A stretch of DNA of 64,000 bases from Candidatus Berkelbacteria bacterium (GCA_016432625.1 CP066697.1:215363-279362), one strand, 5' to 3'. Shown: positions 1 to 15,894, counted from the stretch's first letter. Notes: generated by a model not told the origin, from the letters alone. Translations and numbers: made by a program.

Positions 1-722
1 AAGGATACGGTAACCAACTAAGGGCCTTGCGCAACCAGCCGCAATTTATTATCGGTACGCCAGGACGCCTTAAGGACCACTTCCAGAGTCGAGCCATGCG
101 TTTGGACAACGTTGCCAACTTAGTACTCGACGAAGCTGATCGAATGGTTGAGATGGGTTTCATTAAAGACGTTAGAACACTAATTGCGGCTCTTCCAAAA
201 GCTCGTCAATCACTTTTCTTTTCCGCCACAATAACTTCAGAAGTTCAGCGGCTTATTCAGGAGTTCACTAATAACCCGGAGTCAGTTTCGGTTAAGAAGC
301 GAGAAACCAGCCAAAACGTTGACCAGGACATAATTCACTTTACCGACCCGCTGCATCGTATGACGTTACTACACGATTTACTAACAAAAGAGGAATGCAC
401 GAAAGTACTGGTCTTTGGTCGTACTAAGCACGGTGTGGAGAAATTGAGTCAAGCGTTAGTTGAGCGCGGTTTCAGCGCTGTTTCAATTCACGGCAACAAG
501 AACCAAGCTCAACGACAACGAGCTCTTGATGAATTCAAGGGCAATAAGTTTCAAGTCCTTGTGGCAACTGACGTCGCTGCCCGTGGATTAGATATTCCAG
601 ATGTCTCGCATGTAATAAATTTTGATGCGCCTGAAAGCTACTCCGACTATATCCACCGCATCGGCCGAACCGGCCGAGCTGATAAGACGGGCAAGGCGTT
701 TACTTTCGTCGGACTAGTCTAA
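1..722 (+). CDS. DEAD-box ATP-dependent RNA helicase, C-terminal part (gene starts upstream of window)
   Basis: Reading frame is open from nt 3. Motifs VLDEADRM (motif II), SAT (motif III) and HRIGRTGR (motif VI) are present. The listed ORF 27..722 begins at an internal TTG. Confidence 0.85.
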   Translation, partial: GYGNQLRALRNQPQFIIGTPGRLKDHFQSRAMRLDNVANLVLDEADRMVEMGFIKDVRTLIAALPKARQSLFFSATITSEVQRLIQEFTNNPESVSVKKRETSQNVDQDIIHFTDPLHRMTLLHDLLTKEECTKVLVFGRTKHGVEKLSQALVERGFSAVSIHGNKNQAQRQRALDEFKGNKFQVLVATDVAARGLDIPDVSHVINFDAPESYSDYIHRIGRTGRADKTGKAFTFVGLV

Positions 723-2539
723 TGAGCATCCGTAACGTCGCTATTATCGCTCACGTTGACCACGGCAAAACCACTCTTGTGGACGGCTTGCTTAAGCAGT
801 CTAAAGTTTTTCGCGACAACGAGGCGGTGATGCAGGAACACCTGATCATGGACTCCAACGATCAGGAGCGTGAACGCGGGATTACGATTATGGCTAAAAA
901 CACGGCTGTTACTTATAACGGCGTAAAGATTAATATAATCGACACTCCAGGACACGCCGATTTCGGCGGTGAAGTTGAGCGTACGCTCAACATGACCGAT
1001 AGCGCGCTGCTTATTATTGATGCTAAAGAAGGGCCAATGCCGCAGACTAAGTTCGTTTTGAAAAAAGCCTTAGAACTTGGCCTACGGCCGATCGTTATTA
1101 TTAACAAAATAGACAAGCCAGATTCTCAAATTGAGAAAGTAATCCGTGAAACTTCCGATTTATTTTTAGATTTAGCAACTGACGAATCTCAGCTCGAATT
1201 TCCGATTTTTTACGCGATTGGCCGCGAGGGCAAGGCGTGGTCCTACCAGCCTTCCACTAAAGAAGCCAACGAGGATGCCGATTTGACACCGATTTTTGAC
1301 GCCATTATTAATCACGCCCCCGCACCAAAAAAGGCTAACGCCGAGCCATTTCAAATGCTAGTTTCATCGCTCGACTGGGATCGTTTTCATGGTAAATACG
1401 CGATCGGTAAAGTCAGTTGCGGTGTCGCACGGCCTGGGCTAAGCGTAAGCATTGGGGCCGAGGGCGATTGGCGCGAAACCGTTAAAATTGACCAAGTGTT
1501 CGTTAGTCATGGCTTGAAACGACTTAAAGTTGATCAGGCCGAATCTGGCGAAATTGTTGCCCTAACGGGCTTAAATAATTGCCGCATTGGCGATACGATT
1601 GCCGATGCCGCCTCGCCAGTCGCGCTACCAAGTATGACTATCGCCGAACCGACGTTGAAAATGTCAGTTTCCGCCAATACCTCACCATTCGTTGGCAAAG
1701 AAGGCACGCAGCTCACTAGTCAGAAAATCTATGAGCGAATTATCAAAGAGCTCGAGGTCAATGTTTCTCTAAAAATGGAACCAGGTGAGAATAATGAATA
1801 TATTCTATCGGGCCGAGGCGAGCTTCATCTCTCAGTATTCATCGAGACACTTCGTCGCGAAGGCTTTGAATTACAAATCGGCAAGCCGCAAGTTATTACC
1901 AAAATTGTTGATGGGAAGGTTTATGAACCAATCGAAGAGCTAACCGTAGACGTTGCGAGTGAGTACGCTAGCGCCGTCACAGGTGAGGTTGGGCGGCGAA
2001 AGGGAATGCTGCTTAGCCAGAATGAGAATGAAGACCGGACAACCAGACTGATTTTTGAAATTCCAACCCGTGGCTTGCTTGGCTTGCGCAATGTCTTATT
2101 GACGCTCTCACGTGGCACGGCGGTGATGAACTCGCTATTTTTACACTCCGAGCCGATTGGCAGTGCCATTTCTAAAATGCGTAACGGCGTCCTGATCGCT
2201 TCGGAAGCTGGCACGGCGGTTTCTTACGGACTGAATAACGCTCAGCAACGCGGCACCACCTTCATCAATCCACAGACTCCGGTCTATGAGGGAATGATCA
2301 TCGGCCTAAACTCTCGCGAAACCGATCTGGAAATTAACGTCACCAAAGAAAAGAAGCAAACAAACGTTCGCTCAAGCGGCAACGACGACGCCATCACCTT
2401 GACCCCGCCAACGCTAATGAGCCTCGAGCAGTGCATCGACTTTTTAGAAGATGACGAACTCTTGGAAGCAACGCCAAAATCGTTACGATTACGCAAGAAA
2501 ATCTTAAACGGCTCGTTGCGCGCAAAATCGAAGAAGTGA
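722..2539 (+). CDS. typA: Translational GTPase TypA/BipA
   Basis: N-terminal [11 protein letters not shown]1 motif and DTPGHADF, with EF-G-like domains and length (605 aa) typical of BipA. Confidence 0.9.
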
Positions 2540-2571: not shown

Positions 2572-4803
2572 TTAAATTTTAGCCCGTTTGAGCAACAGCG
2601 AGTTTAAAACTACCGAAATTGAGCTAGCGGCCATAGCCGCGGACGCAAAGATTGGGCTTAGCAAAATTCCCCAAATCGGGAATAAGACGCCGGCCGCAAC
2701 CGGAATAAGCAGGATATTATAGCCGAATGCCCAGACCAGATTCATCCTGATTGTCCCCATAGTCTTGCGGCTTAGGCGAATTGCGGCCGCGATACTACGT
2801 AGGTCCTTATTAATGAGCGTGATGTCGGCCGCTTCAATAGCAACATCGGTCCCTGAGCCCATGGCGATGCCGTTGTCGGCAGCAGCTAGGGCTGGTGCGT
2901 CGTTGATGCCGTCGCCGACCATGGCGACATGCAAGCCTTTTTGTTGTAGTTTGCGTACCTCGAGCTCTTTGTCTTGCGGCAATACTTCCGCTAAAACATT
3001 TTGCGCTTCAACGCCAGCCTCTCGGCCTATTGCCTCAGCAACCCGTCGGTTGTCCCCGGTAATCATGTAAACTTGCAGTCCTAGCTCCCGCAGCTCTTTA
3101 ATGGCGGCTGGTGAGGTTGGTCGAAGAGTATCGGCAACAGCCACAATTCCAGCTGCTTGAGAGTCGATGCCAACTAACATAGCGGTTTTGCCTTCATTCT
3201 CGAGTTGTTCCAAGGCCGTTTCTTGATCATTAGTCAGAGCTACTTTTTCTTGCGCGAAAAGTTTACGGTTGCCGACAACTACGGTCTTTTTCCCAACTTT
3301 GCCGCGAACGCCATGGCCAGAGATTGCCTCAAAATCGCTCACCTTTTCCAATAAAAGGTTTTTATCTTTAGCCGCTTTGACGATGGCCGTTGCTAAAGAG
3401 TGTTCAGACAACGCTTCAACGGCAGCTGTGAGAGCAAGCAGCTCATTCTCCTCACGATTCCACGCCACCACCTCCGTCAGGATTGGTTCACCATTGGTGA
3501 GTGTCCCGGTCTTATCAAAAACGATAGCGGTGACTTTATGGGCGGTCTCCAACGCCTCGGCGTTTTTAATAAGAATGCCGCGCTCGGCACCCCGACCAGT
3601 ACCGACCATGATAGCCGTCGGCGTTGCTAGCCCCATGGCGCACGGACAGGCGATAATTAACACCGTAACCATGCTGAGTAAGGCGTAAGTCATTGCCGGG
3701 TCGGGACCAACAACATACCAAACCACAAAAGTTGCGATCGCTACCATAATTACTATCGGCACGAAGTAGGAGGAGATGGTATCAACCAACCGCTGGATCG
3801 GTGCCTTTGAGCCCTGAGCTTCTTCAACAAGTTTGATGATCTGTGCCAGCATTGTTTCGCTCCCAACTTTCTCGGCTACGAAAGTAAAGCTGCCAGTTTT
3901 ATTGATTGTGGCGCCAATCACAGTGTCTCCGGCTTTTTTTGTCGCTGGTATGGATTCCCCGGTTACCATCGATTCGTCGATGCTTGAGGTGCCTTCTATT
4001 ATTTTTCCGTCAACGGGCACCTTTTCGCCAGGGCGAACGATAATTTTGTCACCATGGACAACCTGGTCGATCGGTAGGTCGATTCCCTTGCCGTCGCGAA
4101 TCACCCGGGCAGTTTTAGCTTGCAGGTTCATTAGTTTTTTTATCGCCTGGCTAGTTCGTTTCTTGGCGACAGCTTCTAGATAGCGTCCAAGCAAGATGAG
4201 CGTAATAACGATGACCGAGACGTCGAAATACGGCGCGATTTCCACCCCCAGCAACGACAAAGCGCCCGGGAAGAAAGTGATAAACGCAGAATAAATATAG
4301 GCGACAGTGGTTCCAAGCGCGATCAAAGTATCCATGTTGGCGCTACGGTGGACTAAGGCGGTTATAGTGCTCTTATAAAACTGCCATCCGGCCCAAAACT
4401 GAATTGGGGTAGCTAGTAATAGTTGAAAGTAAAAGTTTTTAACAATCTCCGGAGCAGTTTCCATCACCCCGGGTACGCTTCCCCACATAACGACTAATCC
4501 AACTAAAAATCCGGCAATGATTTTTGGCTTCAAAATTTTAAGTTCACGCTCCCGCATCATTTCCTGGTGGTCGTGCTGCTCGCTGCCGGCAGGGACTGCC
4601 TTATAGCCGACCCTATTTACCGCAGCTTCTAAGTCGTGACGCGTTGCATGTTTGTGATCGTAAGCAACGGTTGCTTTCCCCGTCACTAAGTTAACATTAG
4701 CTTCGTGGACGCCCGGAACCTTAGTGAGGGAGCGCTCGATTGTCCGGACGCAGCTAGCGCAGTGCATTCCCTCGATGTTGATGGTTTCTTTTTGATGGTT
4801 CAT
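2572..4803 (-). CDS. copA: Copper-translocating P1B-type ATPase CopA with N-terminal HMA domain
   Basis: GMHCASCV metal-binding motif, CPC ([10 protein letters not shown]) in the TM helix, DKTGTLT phosphorylation motif and [10 protein letters not shown] hinge. Confidence 0.9.
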
Positions 4804-4916
4804 CAGTGGTGATGCTCCTCATTTTTACTGCGATCGGCTTTGCCTAAGAAAAACCAATAAGTCAGGATTATTAGGATAATTCCGGCTACGATGACGATAA
4901 GTTTGTCGCTAGTCAT
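4803..4916 (-). CDS. Unannotated 37-aa single-TM peptide ending in HHH ([37 protein letters not shown]), translationally coupled between copZ and copA
   Basis: ATG at 4916 lies 4 nt inside the copZ stop, and its TGA overlaps the copA ATG (TGATG). Hydrophobic core followed by a basic/His3 tail. Below the 60-aa ORF-track cutoff. Confidence 0.45.
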
Positions 4917-5148
4917 GACTTACCTCGGCTTTGTAACCGCTCGTTTCTTCTATCGCTTTGATTACGTCTTCGACGCCCAATTTATTCTCGTCGAATACAA
5001 TTTCGGCGGACTTTTTACCTAAGTTAACCTCAACGCTGTTAATTGCGTCGTAATCCTCCTCCAAAGTTTCTAGCAGCATAACGCAGCTGGCACAGTGGAC
5101 ATCTGGTATATAGAATCTTTGTTTTGTCATCGTTGCCTCCTCATTCAA
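4909..5148 (-). CDS. copZ: Copper chaperone CopZ (HMA domain)
   Basis: HCASCV metal-binding motif in a ~70-aa ferredoxin-like HMA fold. The true start is probably M7 (MTKQRF). Confidence 0.8.
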   Translation of the reverse strand: MNEEATMTKQRFYIPDVHCASCVMLLETLEEDYDAINSVEVNLGKKSAEIVFDENKLGVEDVIKAIEETSGYKAEVSHD

Positions 5149-6298
5149 ACAATATTTGTCCGGTGTACATACCCATTGAGCAGCTGAAACGCAGCCGACC
5201 CTTATCTTGGGCGGGGATATTTATTGTCTCACGGCCAGTTTCCGGTAGAACCTTTTGGATCTTCAAGCTTGGAATTACAAAGGCCCTGCTACAACTGAAG
5301 GTGTCTTTGGTCACTAACGTCAGCCTTGTCGGTACGCCTGCTTTGGCTTTCAAGATGTTTGGCTCGTAACCATCTTCCTGAACGCTAATTGTTAACTTCT
5401 GTTCACTCTGGGCTGCGTCATTCACTTGCTCATTAGCTTTAGTTTGTTGGGCAATTTCGGTTGAGCCAATTGTATCGACCGGCGTATCGAGCCACTGTTT
5501 ATAGGCGGCATACGAGACTGGTGAGCCAACGAGATTAAGACCACTTTCAAGCGAATAGAGGCTGAAGATCAACACCAACACCGCTACTATTCTTACGAAG
5601 TATTTATTCAGGCTTTCGCCAAGACGAGTCGTGAAATAGGCAAGGATAAAGAACAGGGGAGAAGCGCCGAGCGTAAACGAGAATAGTATCAACGCTCCTG
5701 CAACGGGGCTACCCGTACCGAGCGCTAAGGCCATCATCGCCTGAGTAATACCGCACGGGATTAGTACCGTCAGAGCACCTAAAAAGATTGGTGTAGCGTA
5801 ATCTTCTTTGGCATTTTTACTAAAACGGCGGATAAAGCGGCGAATAAACTTTGGTGGTTGAATCTGGAAATAATTAAAGAACGGATGAACATTTAACAGC
5901 CGCAAGGCTGTTCCAAGCATAAAAATAGTAATAGCGAGCATTAGAACTCCGCGCATAACGGGCGTCAGTTGAAGCATTGTGCCGAGCCACCCTAAGCCAA
6001 GCCCTAATAATGTATAAGCAACAATTTTAGCGGCTAAGAATAGAACGATCGATAGAGTGATATCGCTGCGAAAACTTCTTGGCGCTCGCGGCTGTTCCTG
6101 ATGATGCTCGTAGAAGTTAATTAAGTCGTGTTTTGACATATGGGCCGGGTCAACTCGGTTCTCTTTAGGCTTATTTGGCTTAAACTCATCTTCGGCTTGT
6201 TTAGCGATCACATTAGCCAATAGCCCACCTTGAACGGCTAAACAACTAAGGCCGCCTGTAGTAAGGCCAGTCAAAAATATCACCCACAAATTTGGCAT
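5141..6298 (-). CDS. Polytopic membrane permease fused to a C-terminal cupredoxin-like domain (probable copper-handling protein)
   Basis: About 8 predicted TM helices with conserved Cys (GGLSCLA, LIPCGIT). The C-terminal ~90 aa resemble the cupredoxin_1-type fold, with two FSCS motifs and MGMY. Sits between arsR and copZ. Confidence 0.55.
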   Translation of the reverse strand: MPNLWVIFLTGLTTGGLSCLAVQGGLLANVIAKQAEDEFKPNKPKENRVDPAHMSKHDLINFYEHHQEQPRAPRSFRSDITLSIVLFLAAKIVAYTLLGLGLGWLGTMLQLTPVMRGVLMLAITIFMLGTALRLLNVHPFFNYFQIQPPKFIRRFIRRFSKNAKEDYATPIFLGALTVLIPCGITQAMMALALGTGSPVAGALILFSFTLGASPLFFILAYFTTRLGESLNKYFVRIVAVLVLIFSLYSLESGLNLVGSPVSYAAYKQWLDTPVDTIGSTEIAQQTKANEQVNDAAQSEQKLTISVQEDGYEPNILKAKAGVPTRLTLVTKDTFSCSRAFVIPSLKIQKVLPETGRETINIPAQDKGRLRFSCSMGMYTGQILFE

Positions 6299-6624
6299 TA
6301 TTTACTCACCCCTAATTCGTTCAGGAGGCTCTTGGTGAACTCGTTACTTTGCATGGTGTAGTAAACAGTTTGAGCATCCTTACTGGAACTTAGAATGTCT
6401 GCTTTCTTTAGCTTCTTTAACTGCCGGGATGCGGCTGAAATAGAAATACTGACGAGCTCTGCAATTTGGCCGACGGACAATTCCGGATAGTGTCGAAAGA
6501 GATAGCAAATCTTCATAGCCGTGGGGTCGCCAATAGTCCCGTGACGCCGCGCACACGCCTTAACGGCTTCACTGTCGGTAATCTCCCTCTTGATGTTGGC
6601 CAAGTTCTTACTGGCACGCATCAT
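6298..6624 (-). CDS. ArsR/SmtB-family metalloregulatory transcriptional repressor
   Basis: Winged HTH (LSVGQIAELVSISISAASRQLKKL) typical of ArsR/SmtB. First gene of the copper operon. Confidence 0.8.
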   Translation of the reverse strand: MMRASKNLANIKREITDSEAVKACARRHGTIGDPTAMKICYLFRHYPELSVGQIAELVSISISAASRQLKKLKKADILSSSKDAQTVYYTMQSNEFTKSLLNELGVSK

Positions 6625-7318: not shown

Positions 7319-7882
7319 TTACTTCCAGACTAATATCGCTCTCCCTGTATAGCAGTCGTTGAACTTATCGTACGGGACTAAACCAGCTTTCCAATTCTGC
7401 TCAGCAACTTTAGAAGTGTGGTTAACGTAAAATCCTTCATCGTCGTATCCAACCACTACTGCTAAATGGCCACCGAACCTTTTCCAGAAAAGTATTTTTT
7501 CTATTAACAACTTGTTGTTCTTGAACGCCCACTTGATTGAAACGATTGGAAGCTTCTTTTCTTCAAGCGCTTTTTGCAATTCTTTAGTTGAAAGTGTTTT
7601 TCGCTCAGCGTGGAGACCCAATTTTTCAACCAGGCGAACTAAGCCCTCATGTTTCCATCCGTACTCCTCTGAGTAGCCGCCGAGTTCTTGGCCTTGTTTT
7701 ATTAGGCTCGACGTAGAATATTTTGTTTCGTTAAGAAACGAAGCAATCTCATTTACACAAAGGATCCCGCAGCACGAACGCTCCCAGTATTCCGCATCAT
7801 CTCGCGAACTAAATCCTAGCTTTTTCCATTCGTCCAAATTCCAATTTTGTGAATAAAGCGGAATTTCGTACAGAACTTTCAT
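7319..7882 (-). CDS. Stand-alone C39-like (papain-fold) cysteine peptidase domain protein
   Basis: Cys-rich SCCGILC motif and downstream GGHLAVVVGYDD, consistent with a Peptidase_C39_2-type catalytic Cys/His. Confidence 0.45.
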   Translation of the reverse strand: MKVLYEIPLYSQNWNLDEWKKLGFSSRDDAEYWERSCCGILCVNEIASFLNETKYSTSSLIKQGQELGGYSEEYGWKHEGLVRLVEKLGLHAERKTLSTKELQKALEEKKLPIVSIKWAFKNNKLLIEKILFWKRFGGHLAVVVGYDDEGFYVNHTSKVAEQNWKAGLVPYDKFNDCYTGRAILVWK

Positions 7883-8880: not shown

Positions 8881-9582
8881 CTAGTGATTATGGTGTGGGC
8901 AGAATTTAGCGTGATCGCCGATCGCTTCGTTAGTTAGTTTACCGTCCTCGATTGTTACTACCCTGGTGGCGATATCCCGAAGGCGTTGGTCGTGGCTGAC
9001 GATCACGACCGACTTATGTTCCTGACAGGCTATTTCACACAGTAATAACATAACTGAATGGCCATTTTTCGAGTCGAGGTTAGCGGTCGGCTCATCGGCA
9101 AGAATGATTGGCGGATTGTTTATTAGCGATCGAGCGACGGCGACTCGTTGGCGTTCGCCACCCGAGAGTTCTTTAGGCTTGGCGTGAAGACGATTTTGCA
9201 AGCCCAGCCTGTTCAATAACTCTAAGGCGCGCTTGGTGTTGCGGTTTTTGCCAAACCCGGCAATGACGACGTTTTCAAAGGCGGTTAGATTGTCGAGTAA
9301 GTTAAAAGACTGAAAAATAAAGCCGATCTTTCCTCTGCGCAACATCGTCAGTTGTCCTTGGCTTAACTTTGAGATTGGTTGATCGGCAATAAATATCTCA
9401 CCGGCTGAGGGACTAAGTAGCCCGCCCAACATCGTCAGCAGCGTTGTCTTACCGCTGCCTGACGGCCCGATAATCAAGACAATTTCACCCGGTTCGATAC
9501 TAATACTAACGCTCTCGACGGCTTTCACCTCGGTGTGTTGCCGGGGATTAAACGTTTTAGATAATTCGGTGGCTTTGATCAT
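8881..9582 (-). CDS. ABC transporter ATP-binding protein (MacB/LolD-type)
   Basis: Walker A GPSGSGKTT, Q-loop, ABC signature LSGGERQRVAVAR, Walker B ILADEPT. Confidence 0.85.
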   Translation of the reverse strand: MIKATELSKTFNPRQHTEVKAVESVSISIEPGEIVLIIGPSGSGKTTLLTMLGGLLSPSAGEIFIADQPISKLSQGQLTMLRRGKIGFIFQSFNLLDNLTAFENVVIAGFGKNRNTKRALELLNRLGLQNRLHAKPKELSGGERQRVAVARSLINNPPIILADEPTANLDSKNGHSVMLLLCEIACQEHKSVVIVSHDQRLRDIATRVVTIEDGKLTNEAIGDHAKFCPHHNH

Positions 9583-9584
9583 CG

Positions 9585-10682
9585 TTAGGCTTTAAAGACT
9601 GAGGCGGGGTTAATCACCAGTAACCGCTTCAGTGGCATAAACGAGGCGATAATAGCCATCCCGACCACGGCGGCAAATACTAAAATGACCTGTCCGCCAC
9701 TAACTTCGTACAAAAATCCGCTAGCAATATTAGTGGCGGCGATCGCAAAAAGTGGCGCTAGTATCGCTCCCACAACAAAACCAATCGCTCCGGCTGTAAC
9801 TGATTGAATCAGTCCGATGCCGTATATTTGGGCGCCAGTGTAGCCGAGGGCTTTTAGGACCCCATACTCCCGACTTTTCTCGATGGTAGCGGTAAAGATA
9901 GTTAAGCCGATGACTGCTATGCCAATTAGAACAGCGATAATTAGCAGAACCTTAATGATGGGTAGGAATGTTTCAGTGAGAATAGATTTGTTGTTTTCCA
10001 GAAACTCAGTCTTCGTCATAACTTTGTAGTCGGGAAATTGCTTGGCGATATCAATCGTGGCCTGGTCGGGATCGGGTGTCTGTACGAGGTAGTAATTTAC
10101 TAGCCCATCTAGATCAAGGATGTTTTTAACGTCCGCCCGGTTAACCAGAGCGAAGGTGTAGGCGAGAATGTTACCGCCGCTAATAATCCCCGATACTTTG
10201 ACTGTGGTTTTGGCCACTTCAAAAGTGTCACCGATTTTAAGTCCGGTTTGACGGGCTAATACTTGATCGATAGCGATCTCGCCTAGTGCCGGGTCGTCTG
10301 TGCCTTCGACAAGCTCGTAACTCTTTATGAAGCGATCCTCGTCAACACCAACAACGAAAATATGAACGTCTTGGCCGTCAATTGTTGTCCCAACCTGGCG
10401 GCCGACAAATGTTGATACCCGAGTAACAGACCCTAGCTTAGAAACGTCTTCCGATCGGACCGCTTGGATAATTGAGATGCTATGGCTGAGATCACCACTG
10501 CCGGCCTGACCGACCCAGAGGTCGGCGGGGATATTGCCCGTGAACCTTGTCATTTGTTTTTCCCAACCGCTATATAACCCGAGTAGTATCAAGATCAGAA
10601 TCACCGAGAAGGTGACGCCACCTATAGTGATCAACAGCCGGCCTCTTTCGCCGAAAAGGTTCCTTAGCGCGATGAGAAACAT
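9585..10682 (-). CDS. ABC transporter permease, FtsX/MacB family
   Basis: N-terminal TM, large periplasmic MacB-like domain and C-terminal FtsX 3-TM bundle; 4-nt gap to the ATPase gene. Confidence 0.8.
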   Translation of the reverse strand: MFLIALRNLFGERGRLLITIGGVTFSVILILILLGLYSGWEKQMTRFTGNIPADLWVGQAGSGDLSHSISIIQAVRSEDVSKLGSVTRVSTFVGRQVGTTIDGQDVHIFVVGVDEDRFIKSYELVEGTDDPALGEIAIDQVLARQTGLKIGDTFEVAKTTVKVSGIISGGNILAYTFALVNRADVKNILDLDGLVNYYLVQTPDPDQATIDIAKQFPDYKVMTKTEFLENNKSILTETFLPIIKVLLIIAVLIGIAVIGLTIFTATIEKSREYGVLKALGYTGAQIYGIGLIQSVTAGAIGFVVGAILAPLFAIAATNIASGFLYEVSGGQVILVFAAVVGMAIIASFMPLKRLLVINPASVFKA

Positions 10683-10710: not shown

Positions 10711-10739
10711 TTGACAATCCCCCCAGGGGGGACTAGACT
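10711..10739 (+). promoter_or_regulatory. Promoter with embedded CsoR-like box: TTGACA - ATCCCCCCAGGGGGGAC (17 nt) - TAGACT
   Basis: Consensus -35 hexamer. The 17-nt spacer is a perfect C6-A-G6 inverted repeat. Oriented toward the DsbD-like gene at 10872. Confidence 0.45.
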
Positions 10740-10871: not shown

Positions 10872-11747
10872 ATGACCCTGACTTTGTTTATCTTTTCGCT
10901 AACGAGTGCGTTTCTAAGTGGCTTATTGGCATTATTTGCCCCTTGCTGTATCACGTTTCTATTACCTTCCTACTTTGCTTCCGTTTTCCAGAGAAAGAGC
11001 AATATCATCTTTATGACCTTAATATTTTTCTTAGGGTTAACGACAATCCTTCTGCCGATTAGCCTAGGTGCAGCTTGGCTTTCTGGTCTATTCACTGGTT
11101 ATCACACTGCCATTTTTATCGTAGGTGGGTTACTTTTGATCGCCTATGGAATAATGTCCTTCTTCGGTAAGACGGTAATGATTCCACTTCATTACACTCC
11201 AGATTTGAAGCGATCCAGAGGTGTTTTCGGAACGTATCTTCTGGGTATATTCTCGGGCATAGCCAGCTCCTGCTGCGCGCCAGTTTTGGCTGGTTTGCTT
11301 ACCCTGTCGGCCTTATCGGCCACGCTACCGGTCGCTACACTAATCGGCCTCACTTACGTCTTAGGAATGACATTGCCGTTATTTATCCTGTCGCTCGTTT
11401 GGGATGCGAAAAAGATTGGGCAATCGAAATTTTTCAGGGGACGTCCAATCCGCTTCCAGCTTGGCGGTTGGCGGCATGTTGTTCATTCAACCCACCTATT
11501 GGTTAGCATTCTTTTTATCGCTATTGGCGGCTTCATTCTCTACAGCGCAGCAAACGGCGAATCGGCGGTTGCTGCGCCCTGGCAGATAAGACTTAATGCT
11601 AACTTCCAGGGGGCAATTCAAGACTTTGCCAACTTTGCCGCACGTTACCCGCTCCTTAGCTTGACGGCCTTTATATTGCTTATTACCGGCTGGGTGTTGT
11701 TAGTGCGAAAAGCCACAACGGCGTCAAAGGAGAAAAATGAAGCATAG
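10872..11747 (+). CDS. DsbD/CcdA-family thiol-disulfide transporter-like membrane protein (Cys doublets APCC and SSCC)
   Basis: Polytopic TM protein with Cys in TM1 and a mid-protein TM, as in CcdA/DsbD beta-domain proteins; overlaps the downstream TlpA-like gene. Confidence 0.5.
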   Translation: MTLTLFIFSLTSAFLSGLLALFAPCCITFLLPSYFASVFQRKSNIIFMTLIFFLGLTTILLPISLGAAWLSGLFTGYHTAIFIVGGLLLIAYGIMSFFGKTVMIPLHYTPDLKRSRGVFGTYLLGIFSGIASSCCAPVLAGLLTLSALSATLPVATLIGLTYVLGMTLPLFILSLVWDAKKIGQSKFFRGRPIRFQLGGWRHVVHSTHLLVSILFIAIGGFILYSAANGESAVAAPWQIRLNANFQGAIQDFANFAARYPLLSLTAFILLITGWVLLVRKATTASKEKNEA

Positions 11748-12330
11748 CGGAAAGAGTAGCGATCTCTTGTTTACTATTGGTGTAATCGTGGCGGTGGGCA
11801 TCGTCTTGACGGGGATCGTTATCTTTTCTAACGGCAGACCTTCTACCCCCCTTGCGAAGACTGGTTCGCTTAAGATAGGCGATTCGGCTCCAAGCTTTGA
11901 ACTTGCTTCGGCAACGGGTGGAAAGGTCACCTTGAATCAGTATGACGGCAAACCGGTGCTGTTGTACTTTAACGAAGGTGTTGGATGCCAGCCGTGCTGG
12001 AAACAGATTATCGACCTTGAAAACAATGAGAGCTTTAGCTCCCTCAAGATTCCAATGGTGGCAATTGCACCTAACGACCCGAGCGATTGGAGTCCGGTAG
12101 TCTCAAATAACCCTATGCAAACGCCGATCTTGGCCGACATTGAGAATGCCGTTTCAAAGTCCTATGGCATGTTGACCATGAAGTCGTCTATGCACAAGGG
12201 CGTCAACCCAGGCCACACCTTTATCCTGCTTGATGCAGAGCATAAGGTAACCTGGATCGGCGACTACCCGGGAATGAACATGACCGCTTCTGAAATAGTA
12301 ACTGTCATTAAGGACAAGATACGAGGTTGA
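11737..12330 (+). CDS. Membrane-anchored TlpA/ResA-like thioredoxin-fold oxidoreductase (CxxC = CQPC)
   Basis: N-terminal TM anchor, then redoxin domain with VGCQPCWKQ active site. Confidence 0.7.
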   Translation: MKHSGKSSDLLFTIGVIVAVGIVLTGIVIFSNGRPSTPLAKTGSLKIGDSAPSFELASATGGKVTLNQYDGKPVLLYFNEGVGCQPCWKQIIDLENNESFSSLKIPMVAIAPNDPSDWSPVVSNNPMQTPILADIENAVSKSYGMLTMKSSMHKGVNPGHTFILLDAEHKVTWIGDYPGMNMTASEIVTVIKDKIRG

Positions 12331-12404: not shown

Positions 12405-13577
12405 CTACGGGTAAATATATGTTGGAGTGCCGTAAAGCAACGCGTTAACATTGCGCCTTTCGCCATATCCACGTGGTACTAGCCAGTTGTATTCCGAAAC
12501 GTTAATTGTTCCGTCGCTATTAACTTTCTCTACCCAGGCTGTATGGCCGTAAGGGCGGTTCTCGCCAATTGGCCAGGAAACCACTGCCCCAACCCTGGGC
12601 GTTGAAGATGTTTTATAACCTTGGTCACGAGCGAGCGCTGGCCAGTTCCAACCACTGCCGGACCCAGGTCGCGTGTTCATAAACGGCTGACCGTAGGTAA
12701 CAAGCCACTTCCAGGCAGTATATGAAACGCATTGCCTTTTAATGAATAGCCACGGGTCAGCCGCCGCAGGGTTTGGTTCATCCGCGTACGGATAGGCGCT
12801 CGTCGCGCCCTGATTTATATTTTCCGAACCAGCCTGTCGTCGCCGAGCTTCATAAATGGACTGGCTTAGCGTTTCGTGTTCAGTGGCTAATTTTTTCAAT
12901 GAGTCTTCGTAGCGGTCTTGCTGCTCTTGGTTCAGGTTCAGCAGCAAACTTTGCTGTTGTTGCTGACTCGCTAATACGGCTTTATCATTTGATAATAGGC
13001 TCTCGACTTCTTCCAGCTGTTGTTGAAGAGCTACCTGCGAAGCTTTTTTGGCTAGTAGTTCCTGTTTAAGAGCACTTAACTTTTGTCCATCCTGCATTAA
13101 TTGCTGCTGTATAGATTCTAGATAGTTTATGCGCGTCGTGTATTCACCTATGCTTTCAGACGTCAACATAATCACTTTCGAGGTCGTCAGGGTCTCGTAA
13201 AGTAATATGTAAAGACGCCGAGTAGAGCCGTCGAGTTTGGCAATATCTTTCTCGGTTTTCTCGACCTCTCCGTCGATCCTTTCTATCTCTAATTTGGCAA
13301 TATTAAGTGTTCTCCTAGTCGTATCGAGTCGTCCTTGAGTGGAGGCGATGTCCTGCGTGAGCGCGTTTAGCGTCTGCTGCAACGTAAGTTCGACCTTCCG
13401 GCTCTGGTTAAGCCTTTGTTGGTTCTGCTGCTGTTGTTTCTCTACTTCTCTTTGTCGTTTCAAGAGCTCGTTTAATGAAACAGCTTGGGCAGATAGTGGA
13501 GCAGATAGTAAGGTGATTACTAACGCCAGAAAACCAACCGACTTAACAAATATTCGCTTCCCCCTCCTTGGAGGCAT
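12405..13577 (-). CDS. Secreted coiled-coil protein with C-terminal CHAP peptidoglycan-hydrolase domain (PcsB-like architecture)
   Basis: Signal peptide; ~230 aa of Q/E/L-rich heptads; C-terminal CHAP with catalytic Cys (CVSYTAWKW) and His (YGHTAWVE). Confidence 0.7.
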   Translation of the reverse strand: MPPRRGKRIFVKSVGFLALVITLLSAPLSAQAVSLNELLKRQREVEKQQQQNQQRLNQSRKVELTLQQTLNALTQDIASTQGRLDTTRRTLNIAKLEIERIDGEVEKTEKDIAKLDGSTRRLYILLYETLTTSKVIMLTSESIGEYTTRINYLESIQQQLMQDGQKLSALKQELLAKKASQVALQQQLEEVESLLSNDKAVLASQQQQQSLLLNLNQEQQDRYEDSLKKLATEHETLSQSIYEARRRQAGSENINQGATSAYPYADEPNPAAADPWLFIKRQCVSYTAWKWLVTYGQPFMNTRPGSGSGWNWPALARDQGYKTSSTPRVGAVVSWPIGENRPYGHTAWVEKVNSDGTINVSEYNWLVPRGYGERRNVNALLYGTPTYIYP

Positions 13578-13837
13578 TAGTTTTGAGAAAGGTGGTAGAG
13601 GTGTGATAGCTCATTAATAGCCTTGCTGTCCTCACCACTGACAAACTGATCTTTCACGCAGGTAGCCAGATGTTTCTTAAGCAACTCCTGGTTCAAGCTT
13701 TTAAGACTCTTCTGGATCGCTAGGCTTTGTGTCATAAGTTCGATGCAGTACCGGTCTTCCGCTACCATCTTCTGCAGTTTCAGGATATGCCCCTGAATAA
13801 TTTTTATTCGATGTCTAATTCGTTCGTCTTGTGTCAT
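13577..13837 (-). CDS. csoR: CsoR-family Cu(I)-sensing transcriptional repressor (Cys-His-Cys site)
   Basis: DUF156 helical-bundle family. The ligand pattern RYC ... H-x3-C (HLATC) matches Cu-sensing CsoR rather than RcnR. Start taken at M13 (MTQDER); the stop overlaps the CHAP gene ATG. Confidence 0.75.
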   Translation of the reverse strand: MTQDERIRHRIKIIQGHILKLQKMVAEDRYCIELMTQSLAIQKSLKSLNQELLKKHLATCVKDQFVSGEDSKAINELSHLYHLSQN

Positions 13838-13841
13838 GAGT

Positions 13842-13872
13842 ATATTTATAATCCCCCTATAGGGGATAGTCA
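13842..13872 (-). promoter_or_regulatory. csoR promoter with CsoR-like box: TTGACT (13872-13867) - ATCCCCTATAGGGGGAT (13867..13851; plus strand ATCCCCCTATAGGGGAT) - TATAAAT, ATG 6 nt later (near-leaderless)
   Basis: C-tract/G-tract pseudopalindrome forming the 17-nt spacer; same architecture as the 10711 promoter. Confidence 0.5.
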
Positions 13873-13919
13873 ATTCCTTTTTGTTGTGAGACTATGAGTT
13901 CAATAAGAAAGGGGCTTAG

Positions 13920-14060
13920 ATGATGGGAATGAACGCGGATATGATGAGCGGCGGGCTGGGGGGCGGCATGATGGTATTTGGGTGGCTTCTTTACCTACTG
14001 TTCGTTGTGGCTCTTGTTTTGTCGGCAATTGCGCTAGGCAAGTACATCGGCAAGAATTAG
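13920..14060 (+). CDS. Unannotated 46-aa Met/Gly-rich membrane peptide (MMGMNADMMSGGLGGGMMVFGWLLYLLFVVALVLSAIALGKYIGKN)
   Basis: RBS AAGAAAGGGG 6 nt upstream of ATG. N-terminal MxxM/MM motifs followed by one TM helix. Divergent from csoR, 53 nt from the CsoR-like box. Confidence 0.4.
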   Translation: MMGMNADMMSGGLGGGMMVFGWLLYLLFVVALVLSAIALGKYIGKN

Positions 14061-14122: not shown

Positions 14123-14671
14123 ATGCATCATCGGTGGAGATATCCGAACATCACCCTACTATTTATCAGCTTGGCCGTGACGGTTTTTCTGCTCAATAAC
14201 GGCTGGTTGGGGCATCTGAAAGATGGTTTTGAATCTATAGGCTATCTCGGCGTTTTTGTTGCTGGGTTCTTATTTGTCTCTACATTCACAATCGCGCCAG
14301 CGGCCGCTATTCTCTTTGAATTTGCGCAAAACCTCGAGCCAATATTCGTGGCTCTTATTGGTGGCGTTGGCGCGGCGATAGGCGATTACCTCGCCTACAG
14401 ATTCATTAGAGACCGACTGTTTGCCGAGCTTAACCCTCTTCTCAAAGCCCTTCATTTATATCGGCGGATCGACATCCTTCATACGAAGTATTTTGCTTGG
14501 TTGGCGCCGGTAATCGGCGCAGCGATAGTCGCCTCACCGTTACCTGACGAGATTGGTCTTAGCTTGCTTGGTTTGAAAAAGATCGCTTTCAGCCGCTTTA
14601 TCGCCTTGGCCTTCCTGCTCAACGCTTTAGGGATATATGTCATTGCGATTGCTGCTAATTCAGCCCCCTGA
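14123..14671 (+). CDS. Polytopic membrane protein, unknown function
   Basis: Four to five predicted TM helices; no confident family assignment. Confidence 0.35.
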   Translation: MHHRWRYPNITLLFISLAVTVFLLNNGWLGHLKDGFESIGYLGVFVAGFLFVSTFTIAPAAAILFEFAQNLEPIFVALIGGVGAAIGDYLAYRFIRDRLFAELNPLLKALHLYRRIDILHTKYFAWLAPVIGAAIVASPLPDEIGLSLLGLKKIAFSRFIALAFLLNALGIYVIAIAANSAP

Positions 14672-14692: not shown

Positions 14693-15169
14693 ATGAAAAT
14701 ACTTGGGCAGGTCATTGTTGTCTTGTTGGTTGTCGGGGGAATAGTTATTTACAGCAATCGCTCTGGTGATAGCGGAGCTTCTCCAGGTCCGCAAACACAG
14801 TCCGAATCTTCGACGGCAGATCCGTCGCTCGGCGGGTCAACTGACCCTTCTGTAGCTAAAACTCCCGGCGCGTACGTCGATTACTCGGACTCGGTCATCG
14901 CAAGCACCAGTGGAACCAAGATACTTTTCTTTCATGCTCCTTGGTGTCCGCAATGCCGGACACTAGACGCTGATATTAGAAAGAGTAACGTTCCGGCGGG
15001 AGTGACAATAATTAAAACGGACTACGATACTAACCAGGCGCTTCGGCAAAAATACGGCGTGACGATCCAAACGACCTTAGTTAGGGTTGACGACGCCGGT
15101 AACCTGGTCAAGAAATATGTCGCTTACGATGAACCCACCTTTGCCGCCGTCAGTAGTAACCTGCTTTAG
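14693..15169 (+). CDS. Membrane-anchored thioredoxin-family protein (WCPQC)
   Basis: N-terminal TM, Ser/Thr/Pro linker, thioredoxin fold with the canonical WCPQC motif. Confidence 0.7.
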   Translation: MKILGQVIVVLLVVGGIVIYSNRSGDSGASPGPQTQSESSTADPSLGGSTDPSVAKTPGAYVDYSDSVIASTSGTKILFFHAPWCPQCRTLDADIRKSNVPAGVTIIKTDYDTNQALRQKYGVTIQTTLVRVDDAGNLVKKYVAYDEPTFAAVSSNLL

Positions 15170-15171
15170 AA

Positions 15172-15894
15172 ATGGTGTTACTTTATGCCTCGTTTGTCGC
15201 TGGTTTCCTTACCGTCTTGGCGCCGTGCATCTTGCCGGTTTTGCCGGTGGTTTTAGCCGGATCGGTAACAGAAAGCCGACGCACGAAACGTATTGTAACG
15301 ATTATTTTTGGCTTGACGATTTCAGTTGTTGTTTTCTCGTTACTCTTGAAAGCGACAACTAGCCTGCTCGGAATTCCACAAATTGTTTGGCAGCTAATTT
15401 CTGGCGGGATACTAATTCTCTTCGGAGTGGTCAGTCTCTATCCAGGGCTTTGGGAAAAAGTCTCGGCACCGCTCGGCGCTAAGGCGGGTGAGTCGTTGCA
15501 GACCAGTAGAACCAAATCTGGTCTTTGGGGGGATTTATTCCTTGGAGCAGCGCTGGGGCCGGTCTTCAACAGCTGTAGCCCGACATACGCCTTAATAGTC
15601 GCGGCGATTTTGCCTGTTTCGTTCGGGCGTGGACTTACTTATTTGGTATCTTACGCGATCGGTCTGGCCGTGGCGCTACTTTTAATCGCCTTCCTTGGCC
15701 GGGCACTAGTTAGCAAACTTGGCTGGGCTGCCAACCCAACAGGCTGGTTTCATAAAGTAATTGGCGTGTTACTAATAGTGATTGGGCTGGCTGTCATCTT
15801 TGGCGCCGACAAGAAGTTTCAAACCTATGTGCTTGATCGGGGCTACTATCAACCGATAATAAACTTAGAAGAACAACTTCGTTTACCGAAGTAA
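15172..15894 (+). CDS. ccdA: Cytochrome c-type biogenesis / thiol-disulfide transporter CcdA
   Basis: Six TM helices with conserved Cys in TM1 (APCILP) and TM4 (NSCSP); starts 3 nt after the thioredoxin gene. Confidence 0.75.
   Translation: MVLLYASFVAGFLTVLAPCILPVLPVVLAGSVTESRRTKRIVTIIFGLTISVVVFSLLLKATTSLLGIPQIVWQLISGGILILFGVVSLYPGLWEKVSAPLGAKAGESLQTSRTKSGLWGDLFLGAALGPVFNSCSPTYALIVAAILPVSFGRGLTYLVSYAIGLAVALLLIAFLGRALVSKLGWAANPTGWFHKVIGVLLIVIGLAVIFGADKKFQTYVLDRGYYQPIINLEEQLRLPK

Follow-up and report, generated by a model that had tools for sequence, protein, structure and literature searches.

A Met-rich membrane micropeptide family of Patescibacteria as a candidate Cu(I)-handling accessory of copper export

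A short gene in a copper/thiol-redox island

Here, we followed up a short open reading frame (ORF) in the window, i.e., the whole 64,000-nt stretch of Candidatus Berkelbacteria DNA that was analysed. The ORF starts with the ATG at 13920, ends with the stop codon at 14058-14060 on the plus strand and comprises 46 codons, with the product MMGMNADMMSGGLGGGMMVFGWLLYLLFVVALVLSAIALGKYIGKN. It is present exactly as an earlier note on this DNA had described it. That note had also called the gene unannotated, which is wrong for the public record: GenBank already lists it under HZB70_01640, as a hypothetical protein from a Candidatus Berkelbacteria MAG, and the gene is missing only from an ORF track with a 60-aa cut-off. 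The gene and its surroundings comprise the following features:

2572-4803, minus strand: CopA P1B-1 ATPase (CPC, YN and MxxSS; TIGR01511, 624 bits against a cut-off of 397)
4909-5148, minus strand: copZ-like HMA protein
5141-6298, minus strand: DsbD_2-cupredoxin fusion
6298-6624, minus strand: arsR
7319-7882: C39-like peptidase, between the copper genes and the MacB-type ABC transporter
8881..10682, minus strand: MacB-type ABC transporter (permease 9585-10682, MacB_PCD and FtsX; ATPase 8881-9582)
10718..10732, no strand assigned: second CsoR-like box, TCCCCCCAGGGGGGA, between the MacB operon (minus strand) and the dsbD-like/redoxin operon (plus strand)
10872..12330, plus strand: DsbD_TM-like membrane protein (10872-11747) and AhpC/TSA redoxin (11737-12330), by domain match
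13577..13837, minus strand: CsoR-family repressor, 86 aa from its ATG, divergent from the peptide gene (PF02583, E 3.4e-20)
13851..13867, no strand assigned: CsoR-type G-tract pseudopalindrome ATCCCCCTATAGGGGAT, in the 82-nt divergent csoR-peptide intergenic region
13905..13914, plus strand: Shine-Dalgarno-like AAGAAAGGGG, 5 nt before the peptide ATG
13920..14060, plus strand: Met/Gly-rich single-pass membrane peptide, 46 aa
14123..14671, plus strand: polytopic membrane protein of 182 aa, starting 62 nt after the peptide stop
14693..15169, plus strand: membrane-anchored thioredoxin-fold protein with WCPQC (PF00085, E 5e-8)
15172..15894, plus strand: DsbD_2/CcdA-type thiol-disulfide electron transporter (PF13386, E 1.5e-7)

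The translation bears out the claim of seven Met in the N-terminal 18 residues, at positions 1, 2, 4, 8, 9, 17 and 18. A single transmembrane (TM) helix after the Met-rich segment is likewise supported, both by 19-residue Kyte-Doolittle windows that reach 2.6 and by an AlphaFold2 model built on a 68-sequence alignment, in which residues 14-44 form a helix with pLDDT above 90; the N-terminal tail is modelled less confidently (pLDDT about 62) and is flexible. The ribosome-binding site was rightly judged good, with an anti-Shine-Dalgarno duplex energy of -7.3 kcal/mol for AAGAAAGGGG, whereas its spacing is 5 nt rather than the 6 nt given before. No paralogue of the peptide was found within the 64-kb window. 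The length of 46 codons is, by itself, no evidence of coding, because 84 ORFs of at least 30 aa overlap the 9-kb stretch in which it lies.

The divergent neighbour is a CsoR, as the earlier note had it. Its residues C31, H56 and C60 align with the complete Cu(I) ligand triad, C36/H61/C65, of Mycobacterium tuberculosis CsoR (2hh7), and in the alignment with PDB entries 4m1p, 2hh7 and 4adz the best PDB matches are copper CsoRs; the best NCBIfam match is RicR, below the cut-off. The CsoR-like box also stands, although the distance from its flank (13867) to the peptide ATG is 52 nt rather than 53. Its palindromic 12-nt core, CCCCTATAGGGG (13854-13865), occurs once in the window. The box resembles the type 2 CsoR operator consensus of Streptomyces, ATATACCCCTNAGGGGTATAT (PMC3902906), and is not identical to it, having a TATA centre and AT flanks in place of the TAC/GTA flanks of the known operator.

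Promoter hexamers were read by eye, the promoter scan having called none in the csoR-peptide intergenic region. Read on the minus strand, the 17-nt spacer of TTGACT(13873-13868)-N17-TATAAA(13850-13845), the likely csoR promoter, is taken up exactly by the box. The -10 hexamer of this promoter stops 7 nt short of the csoR ATG, an arrangement that would point to autoregulation of a nearly leaderless csoR. In the plus-strand direction, the box directly adjoins TATAAT (13847-13852). Similarly, TCCCCCCAGGGGGGA fills the 17-nt spacer of TTGACA(10711-10716)-N17-TAGACT(10734-10739), again with hexamers read by eye. The pattern C4-N(2-6)-G4 has 7 matches in the window against 2.2 expected, a number reached in 1 of 100 shuffles, with the caveat that the 7 matches fall at four places, overlapping hits at the two boxes being counted separately. 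Comparable boxes precede a DUF5676-peptide gene pair and a dsbD-like gene in two other genomic loci (L026 and L059, respectively). From csoR and the operator-like boxes, control of the peptide operon by CsoR is a reasonable inference.

The same-strand run described downstream of the peptide, a membrane protein (182 aa), a thioredoxin and a DsbD_2/CcdA protein, is indeed there. No terminator-like structure was found in the 62-nt gap between the peptide gene and that of the 182-aa protein, and we infer that the peptide is co-transcribed with the genes that follow. The 182-aa protein has no Pfam or NCBIfam match. Synteny via this protein was discarded as a route to the peptide family, given that its homologues elsewhere lack the peptide and CsoR: the one in locus L001 (64% identical) has neither upstream, and at L002 the sequence ends 138 nt upstream of the homologue.

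Copper and thiol genes are confined to the region between 2.5 and 16 kb, so that the peptide lies in a copper/thiol-redox island of about 14 kb; with the exception of generic ABC ATPases, the island families are absent from the other 48 kb of the window. The island also holds a gene for a CHAP peptidoglycan hydrolase, which follows the AhpC/TSA redoxin gene and precedes csoR. The window CopA is 9 kb from the peptide, on the opposite strand, and the copZ-copA genes appear to be under ArsR-type rather than CsoR control.

A conserved family of small membrane peptides

A single-sequence word search returned the peptide itself as the sole match, and the family surfaced only in an exhaustive phmmer/HMMER scan of a library of 1.84 billion protein cluster representatives. 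Phmmer yielded 23 proteins with E below 1e-3, i.e., 22 besides the peptide (E 2.7e-11 to 5e-4), of which the nearest representative (E 2.7e-11) is 67% identical to it. Nearly all of these are 38-48 aa long, full-length collinear and of the same architecture, and the phmmer output as a whole consists of collinear peptides of 38-68 aa plus one repetitive 566-aa protein, with no recognisable added domain. A profile made from 21 members retrieved at least 682 clusters at 90% identity (8000 candidates scored) and gave the window ORF an E value of 5e-24. Among the profile matches listed, all are hypothetical proteins without Pfam domains, and the named organisms are Berkelbacteria, Saccharimonadales, Paceibacterota and Peregrinibacteria, all within Patescibacteria/CPR. 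Family members have no family match in Pfam or NCBIfam, only weak matches at the level of the TM segment; no chain among the PDB sequences resembles them, Rfam gave no meaningful match, and our literature search found no description of the peptide family or of DUF5676. Judged by its sequence, which shares the full-length collinearity, the size range (42-48 aa), the one TM helix and the basic C-terminus of the other members, the window peptide belongs to a large, so far unnamed Patescibacteria family of membrane peptides of about 44 aa.

For this family we gathered 89 loci, 9 obtained by exact look-up and 80 from metagenomes, which encode 63 distinct peptides. Loss of the frame or the accumulation of stops in relatives, named by the earlier note as counter-evidence, is clearly not what is seen: the ORF is intact and stop-free in 89/89 loci, with the Met pattern preserved, five Met columns being conserved at 79-97%. 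In the codon alignment, the median pS is 0.79, i.e., saturated, against a pN of 0.23; over the 115 unsaturated pairs, dN/dS is 0.21, and the entropies at codon positions 1, 2 and 3 are 0.77, 0.49 and 1.32 bits, respectively. The translation signal recurs as well, given that anti-Shine-Dalgarno pairing at -6 kcal/mol or better precedes the peptide ATG in 60% of the family loci compared with 17% of control ATGs, and a perfect AAGGAGGTGA lies upstream of many family ATGs. Thus, homology and purifying selection raise the ORF above chance expectation, and it is almost certainly a genuine protein-coding gene, that of a small membrane protein with its own translation signal, as had been proposed.

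The family consensus is MM-[DN]-Y-N-x-M-x-G-x2-G-x2-MM-F-F-x-W ... L-G-I-A-A-L-W-K-Y-I-N-K-K. Among the 63 distinct members, M1 is present in 95% and M2 in 97%; a D/N-Y-N segment then leads to a central Met (94%), with an extra flanking Met in about a third, and is followed by G-x-x-G-[GS]-[GS] and an MM pair (79% and 90%). The helix opens with F-F-[ASG]-W and contains conserved Y, L, L-L and L-G-I, and an invariant A precedes the terminal L-W-K-Y-I-N-K-K, in which K and Y are invariant too; W, L and G of the TM/C-terminal part reach 87% or more. Conservation around MM-F-x-W is inflated, in that one of the two patterns used to collect metagenome members spans it, but the unbiased phmmer matches agree. 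The Mets-like pattern noticed in the window thus holds across the family, with M1, M2, the central M and the MM pair each kept in 79-97% of the members and the clusters MxM, MM and MxxxM conserved among relatives with the spacing of Mets motifs. The window peptide falls in a subgroup that starts with MMGMN and has G where W usually precedes K-Y; the Berkelbacteria locus L008 shares both traits, whereas L012 has the same start and keeps W, and P0012, like L008, has the G. The peptides of L080, L087 and L088 lack the central Met.

Excluding the initiator, Met makes up 28% of the tail, compared with 2% of the neighbouring proteins. The tail is devoid of basic residues and carries a net charge of -0.8, whereas the last seven residues carry +2.7, a distribution that, by the positive-inside rule, predicts an N-out/C-in topology, with the Met-rich tail outside the cytoplasm and the short basic C-terminus within it. 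In the 63 distinct members, the TM and C-terminal residues are conserved above most positions of the tail, which suggests that the helix packs specifically with a partner, rather than that metal chelation alone is under selection, and that the tail Mets could be secondary.

Genomic neighbours and known systems

To define the genomic context, we clustered the neighbouring ORFs de novo and named the clusters with Pfam. The link to copper proposed for the window extends well beyond it, with P1B ATPases, CsoR and cupredoxin fusions being the commonest neighbours of family members. P-type ATPases predominate: their gene lies directly upstream on the same strand, with a gap of 19-109 nt, in 15 of the 55 lineages for which 300 nt or more of upstream DNA is available, and within 600 nt on either side in 20/63 lineages. 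Genomes of this kind have fewer than a thousand genes, of which one or two encode such pumps, so that chance adjacency should be well under 1%. All but two of the 15 directly upstream pumps (13/15) are of the copper-type P1B class, with HMA or HMBD domains and the signatures CPC...YN...MxxSS (P1B-1) or CPH...YN (P1B-3), which we take, by established motif knowledge, to denote copper types; those of L080 and L051 are non-copper P2-type pumps with Cation_ATPase_N/C domains.

Other recurrent neighbours include a gene for a two-TM DUF5676 protein, which touches the peptide gene in 11 lineages (phmmer); CsoR, found near the peptide in 9 lineages, in 6 of which the distance is no more than 600 nt, with some pairs lying on one strand 18-63 nt apart; and HMA-DsbD-cupredoxin fusions, near the peptide in 11 lineages. 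A weaker DUF5676-like match occurs upstream in L086 and L079. MacB-type ABC transporters (permease/ATPase pairs) are found near the peptide in 8-9/63 lineages, directly adjoining it in L008, L012, L019 and L059. Pairs of DsbD-like and AhpC/TSA genes (L059, L056 and L047), DUF1573 and cupredoxins also recur, and the L012 cluster includes a DUF2933 gene. Of the 28 loci with flanks of 6 kb or more, 19 have a copper marker within that distance, i.e., a gene for a P-type ATPase, CsoR or DsbD-cupredoxin; the other 9 well-sampled loci have none, and the neighbours there include a Na/Ca exchanger, ribosomal S12, Bax1-I, Lgt and BlaI/M56. One apparent CopY, at L014, was reassigned: this Penicillinase_R protein has no Cys motif at its C-terminus, and the next gene encodes an M56 protease, so that it is of the BlaI/BlaR type. 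The 182-aa protein (1/63 lineages), the thioredoxin (1/63) and CcdA (2/63) encoded after the peptide in the window are not conserved partners of the family.

Two kinds of known systems invite comparison. Mets-motif Cu(I) sites occur in the Ctr1 N-terminus, CusF/CusB, PcoC/CopC, PcoE/SilE and the Met-rich domain of CueO. With these, the peptide shares Met clusters (MM, MxM, MxxxM) in a flexible, non-basic segment that is extracytoplasmic (in the peptide, by prediction) and a link to copper-export genes. There is no sequence homology, however: the known proteins are soluble domains or polytopic transporters, whereas the peptide is a putative copper-binding, 44-46-aa single-pass protein without His. 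Met-rich domains have been described as Cu(I) recruiters (PMC11494321).

The second kind comprises small partners of transporters. CcoS/FixS (about 52 aa), an N-out/C-in protein encoded after the Cu ATPase CcoI in ccoGHIS (PMC12648545), resembles the peptide in having a single TM helix, the topology predicted for the peptide and a gene directly downstream of a copper P1B ATPase. However, CcoS functions through its cytosolic C-terminal part (D33) in cbb3 oxidase assembly, whereas the C-terminus of the peptide is 5-6 residues long and its outside tail is the distinctive part. The CcoS/FixS models (PF03597, TIGR00847) match 1/21 members, weakly (E 0.13-0.26), and cbb3 oxidase genes are absent from all loci examined; membership in CcoS/FixS was rejected on these grounds. 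KdpF, sarcolipin/phospholamban and MgtS/MgtR are similar to the peptide in size, in the single TM helix and in their operonic position beside a P-type ATPase, but are not homologous to it and lack a tail rich in metal ligands. For the peptide, the pump-operon position is seen in 15/55 lineages; the window gene is separated from CopA by 9 kb and lies on the other strand. The bacterial small membrane proteins covered by a 2025 review include KdpF, MgtS/MgtR and CcoS, and no copper-pump micropeptide is among them (PMC12648545).

Two further resemblances are looser. The CsoR regulons of Bacillus, Streptomyces and Mycobacterium (copZA) have, like the window, a divergent csoR with the C-H-C set and a G-tract pseudopalindrome in the promoter, but the genes at stake in the window are those for a micropeptide, the 182-aa membrane protein and thiol-redox proteins, not copZA. 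DUF2933 and SHOCT-domain proteins, the latter with Met/Gly-rich N-termini, are likewise small, membrane-located and encoded in metal islands, and have segments rich in Met and Gly; the peptide has no Pfam match to either. Overall, the peptide would work like a combination of two known kinds, the Met-rich Cu(I) site and the micropeptide partner of a transporter, while belonging by sequence to neither.

A candidate accessory of copper export

A role of the peptide in copper or metal homeostasis is probable. More specifically, we propose, with a slight preference over the other readings taken together, that it is a Met-rich accessory of copper export that handles Cu(I) on the extracytoplasmic side. 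The two components of this proposal differ in strength: the composition and conservation of the tail leave direct Cu(I) binding evenly poised, and the neighbourhoods make a physical partnership with a P-type ATPase plausible, if somewhat short of an even chance.

Under this proposal, the peptide would be a small type-III (N-out/C-in) single-pass protein with about 20 acidic or neutral, Met/Gly-rich residues outside the cell, a basic KYINKK-type tail kept in the cytoplasm and one tightly conserved TM helix between them. The helix would pack against another membrane protein, in most cases a P1B Cu(I) ATPase. The thioether-rich tail would bind Cu(I), or Ag(I), on the outer side of the membrane, where it would accept or buffer the ions that leave the pump and keep them clear of exposed thiols. 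In this genome, the peptide gene would be repressed by the divergent Cu(I)-sensing CsoR, de-repressed by copper and induced together with the extracytoplasmic thiol-repair set (thioredoxin and CcdA), whose products would deal with copper-catalysed disulfide damage.

The main rival sees in the peptide a micropeptide that serves P-type ATPases in general as a subunit or regulator, independently of metal and in the manner of KdpF, sarcolipin/phospholamban or MgtS: its helix would dock on the pump and stabilise or tune it, with the Met tail being incidental or serving insertion or packing. It draws on the pumps directly upstream on the same strand in 15/55 lineages, two of them P2-type, on the TM and C-terminal residues being the most conserved part of the peptide and on the precedents of KdpF and MgtS/MgtR (PMC12648545). 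Against it, 13/15 of the adjoining pumps are copper-type; CsoR, cupredoxin fusions and HMA proteins recur even without an adjacent pump; the five Met columns are conserved at 79-97%; and the window gene, 9 kb from the pump, nevertheless adjoins a copper sensor. We consider this alternative improbable, if the most serious of those weighed here.

A still less probable alternative casts the peptide as an envelope redox or stress peptide, with the exposed Mets acting as a sacrificial sink for oxidants, or for oxidation catalysed by copper, that is serviced by thioredoxin and CcdA, such that copper handling would be indirect. In the window, the gene does head a run with a membrane-anchored thioredoxin and CcdA, and DsbD-type and AhpC/TSA genes recur near family members. 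However, only 1-2/63 lineages have this thioredoxin and CcdA beside the peptide, no methionine sulfoxide reductase was seen near the peptide, and adjacency to pumps is far more frequent.

Very unlikely, too, is a reading in which the peptide serves the MacB-type ABC transporter as partner or substrate, e.g., as an exported or bacteriocin-like peptide cut at Gly-Gly by the C39-like peptidase. The GG runs of the peptide, the C39-like peptidase gene at 7319-7882 and the MacB pairs near the peptide in 8-9 lineages, four of them adjoining (L008, L012, L019 and L059), would fit such a role; yet the peptide lacks the double-glycine leader consensus, its hydrophobic helix and basic C-terminus make a membrane anchor rather than a secreted core, no bacteriocin family model in Pfam or NCBIfam matches, and the linkage is weaker than that to ATPases, so that both may just mark the same metal island. 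A double-glycine bacteriocin precursor was rejected on the same grounds, i.e., the lack of a model match and a sequence that reads as a membrane anchor with a basic end.

Finally, the absence of a functional protein altogether, i.e., a Met-codon-rich leader or regulatory uORF, a hydrophobic peptide resembling type I toxins or an ORF that arose by chance, might be entertained for a short, hydrophobic product at the head of an operon, with seven Met codons in 18 that recall attenuator leaders, but is largely refuted by the 89 intact loci and dN/dS of about 0.2, with purifying selection acting over the whole length, TM and C-terminus included, and by the frequent position behind a pump (directly, 15/55 lineages) rather than upstream of regulated genes, the lack of a terminator/antiterminator structure after the peptide and of an Rfam match, and the single copy in the window, so that its probability is next to negligible.

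The Cu(I)-handling accessory could be taken further, to a reading that we regard as unlikely yet worth stating: the peptide would be the first recognised micropeptide partner of bacterial copper P1B ATPases, a tethered Cu(I) acceptor found throughout Patescibacteria that docks on the pump and takes the ion at the exit site, functionally like periplasmic CusF but pared down to about 20 Met-rich residues on one helix, in cells without a periplasm, and that, together with DUF5676, would form a three-gene export module.

How Cu(I) departs from the exit site of P1B ATPases in single-membrane cells, and what receives it there, is an open point in copper homeostasis, for which a Met-rich peptide encoded behind the pumps offers a testable receiver candidate of only 44 residues. 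If CsoR indeed controls the operon in the window, the content of CsoR regulons would extend beyond copZA to envelope thiol-repair genes. Furthermore, the small proteins of Patescibacteria, organisms whose reduced genomes keep few dispensable genes, are poorly charted, and their known repertoire grows by a family of at least 682 clusters (at 90% identity).

Genes adjacent to the peptide gene

In 11 lineages, only 2–19 nt separate the peptide gene from that of a DUF5676 two-TM protein of ~84 aa (loci L023, L026, L030, L031, L035, L046, L053, L061, L064, L078 and L090; e.g., L035 2966–3220), with an additional weak match at L086 5572–5949. Given this spacing, and because the order P1B-type (copper) pump, peptide, DUF5676 is frequent among the 11 lineages, the gene arrangement points to a three-gene module. 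The DUF5676 protein had no match in NCBIfam, and a literature search on DUF5676 found no publications. In two lineages, the pump encoded directly upstream of the peptide is not of the copper type but belongs to the P2-type cation ATPases, with Cation_ATPase_N/C domains (L080 375–2888 and L051 3345–5938); the L080 peptide lacks the conserved central Met (MMSYGNFGWGGGMM...), and the L051 pump ORF is broken into two pieces, reflecting either a frameshift or an assembly error. One 45-aa family member, P0133, carries the JGI label ‘uncharacterized membrane protein YqiK’; for a peptide with one helix, this name seems to be an artefact of annotation.

In the window, the peptide gene is followed by that of a 182-aa membrane protein, which matched no model in Pfam or NCBIfam. 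Homologous proteins occur in a second Patescibacteria MAG (64%) and in a Verrucomicrobiia MAG (42%), with a partial one in Woeseiaceae.

14123–14671: 182-aa membrane protein (homologues at L001 3992–4540 and L002 139–675)

At its start, the L002 contig carries the tail of a hydrophobic ORF, reading ...LMIALVFVKA stop; some 100 nt lie between it and the downstream homologue of the 182-aa protein, and the rest of this ORF is off the contig.

Recurrent and unusual neighbours

Peptidoglycan hydrolase genes repeatedly adjoin the peptide, both in the window and at the Berkelbacteria-type loci (L008–L013), where a Peptidase_M23 protein gene is directly upstream.

12405–13577, minus strand: CHAP-domain protein that includes a long coiled coil; its gene lies tail to tail with csoR

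A gene for the BipA/TypA GTPase is found a few kb from the peptide in the window (722–2539) and on a Peregrinibacteria contig (L016 187–1983), a proximity that may be coincidental or mark a common insertion neighbourhood of the island. In a Paceibacterota lineage (L014/L015 5270–6704), the genes after that of the peptide encode a BlaI-type repressor, in which the CopY Cys motif is absent, and an M56 BlaR1-like protease; thioredoxin-like and DUF1573-cupredoxin proteins are encoded 3–4 kb further on. This layout may represent an alternative means of sensing.

Promoters and the putative CsoR regulon

13838–13873, minus strand: likely csoR promoter, TTGACT-N17-TATAAA
10711–10739: second CsoR-like G-tract palindrome, TCCCCCCAGGGGGGA, with promoter, between the MacB operon (minus strand) and the dsbD-like/AhpC-TSA operon (plus strand)
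2572–6624, minus strand: operon of arsR, a DsbD_2-cupredoxin fusion, copZ-like and copA

The csoR ATG lies 7 nt past the end of the putative −10 hexamer, and no SD is visible before it, so that csoR may be translated from an mRNA with little or no leader. The longer csoR ORF proposed by the ORF finder begins at a TTG (13873) within the −35 hexamer; this start is probably not used.

The regulator in front of the genome's copper pump appears to be of the ArsR type and not CsoR. Fusions of the HMA-DsbD-cupredoxin kind, of up to 653 aa, are again encoded upstream of pumps at L019, L021 and L024. A box resembling TCCCCCCAGGGGGGA precedes a dsbD-like gene at L059 (7867–7886). In the window, the near-consensus promoter TTGACA-N17-TAGACT has a 17-nt spacer that coincides exactly with TCCCCCCAGGGGGGA, and the position of this palindrome, between the MacB and dsbD-like operons, suggests a CsoR regulon spanning two divergent promoter regions.
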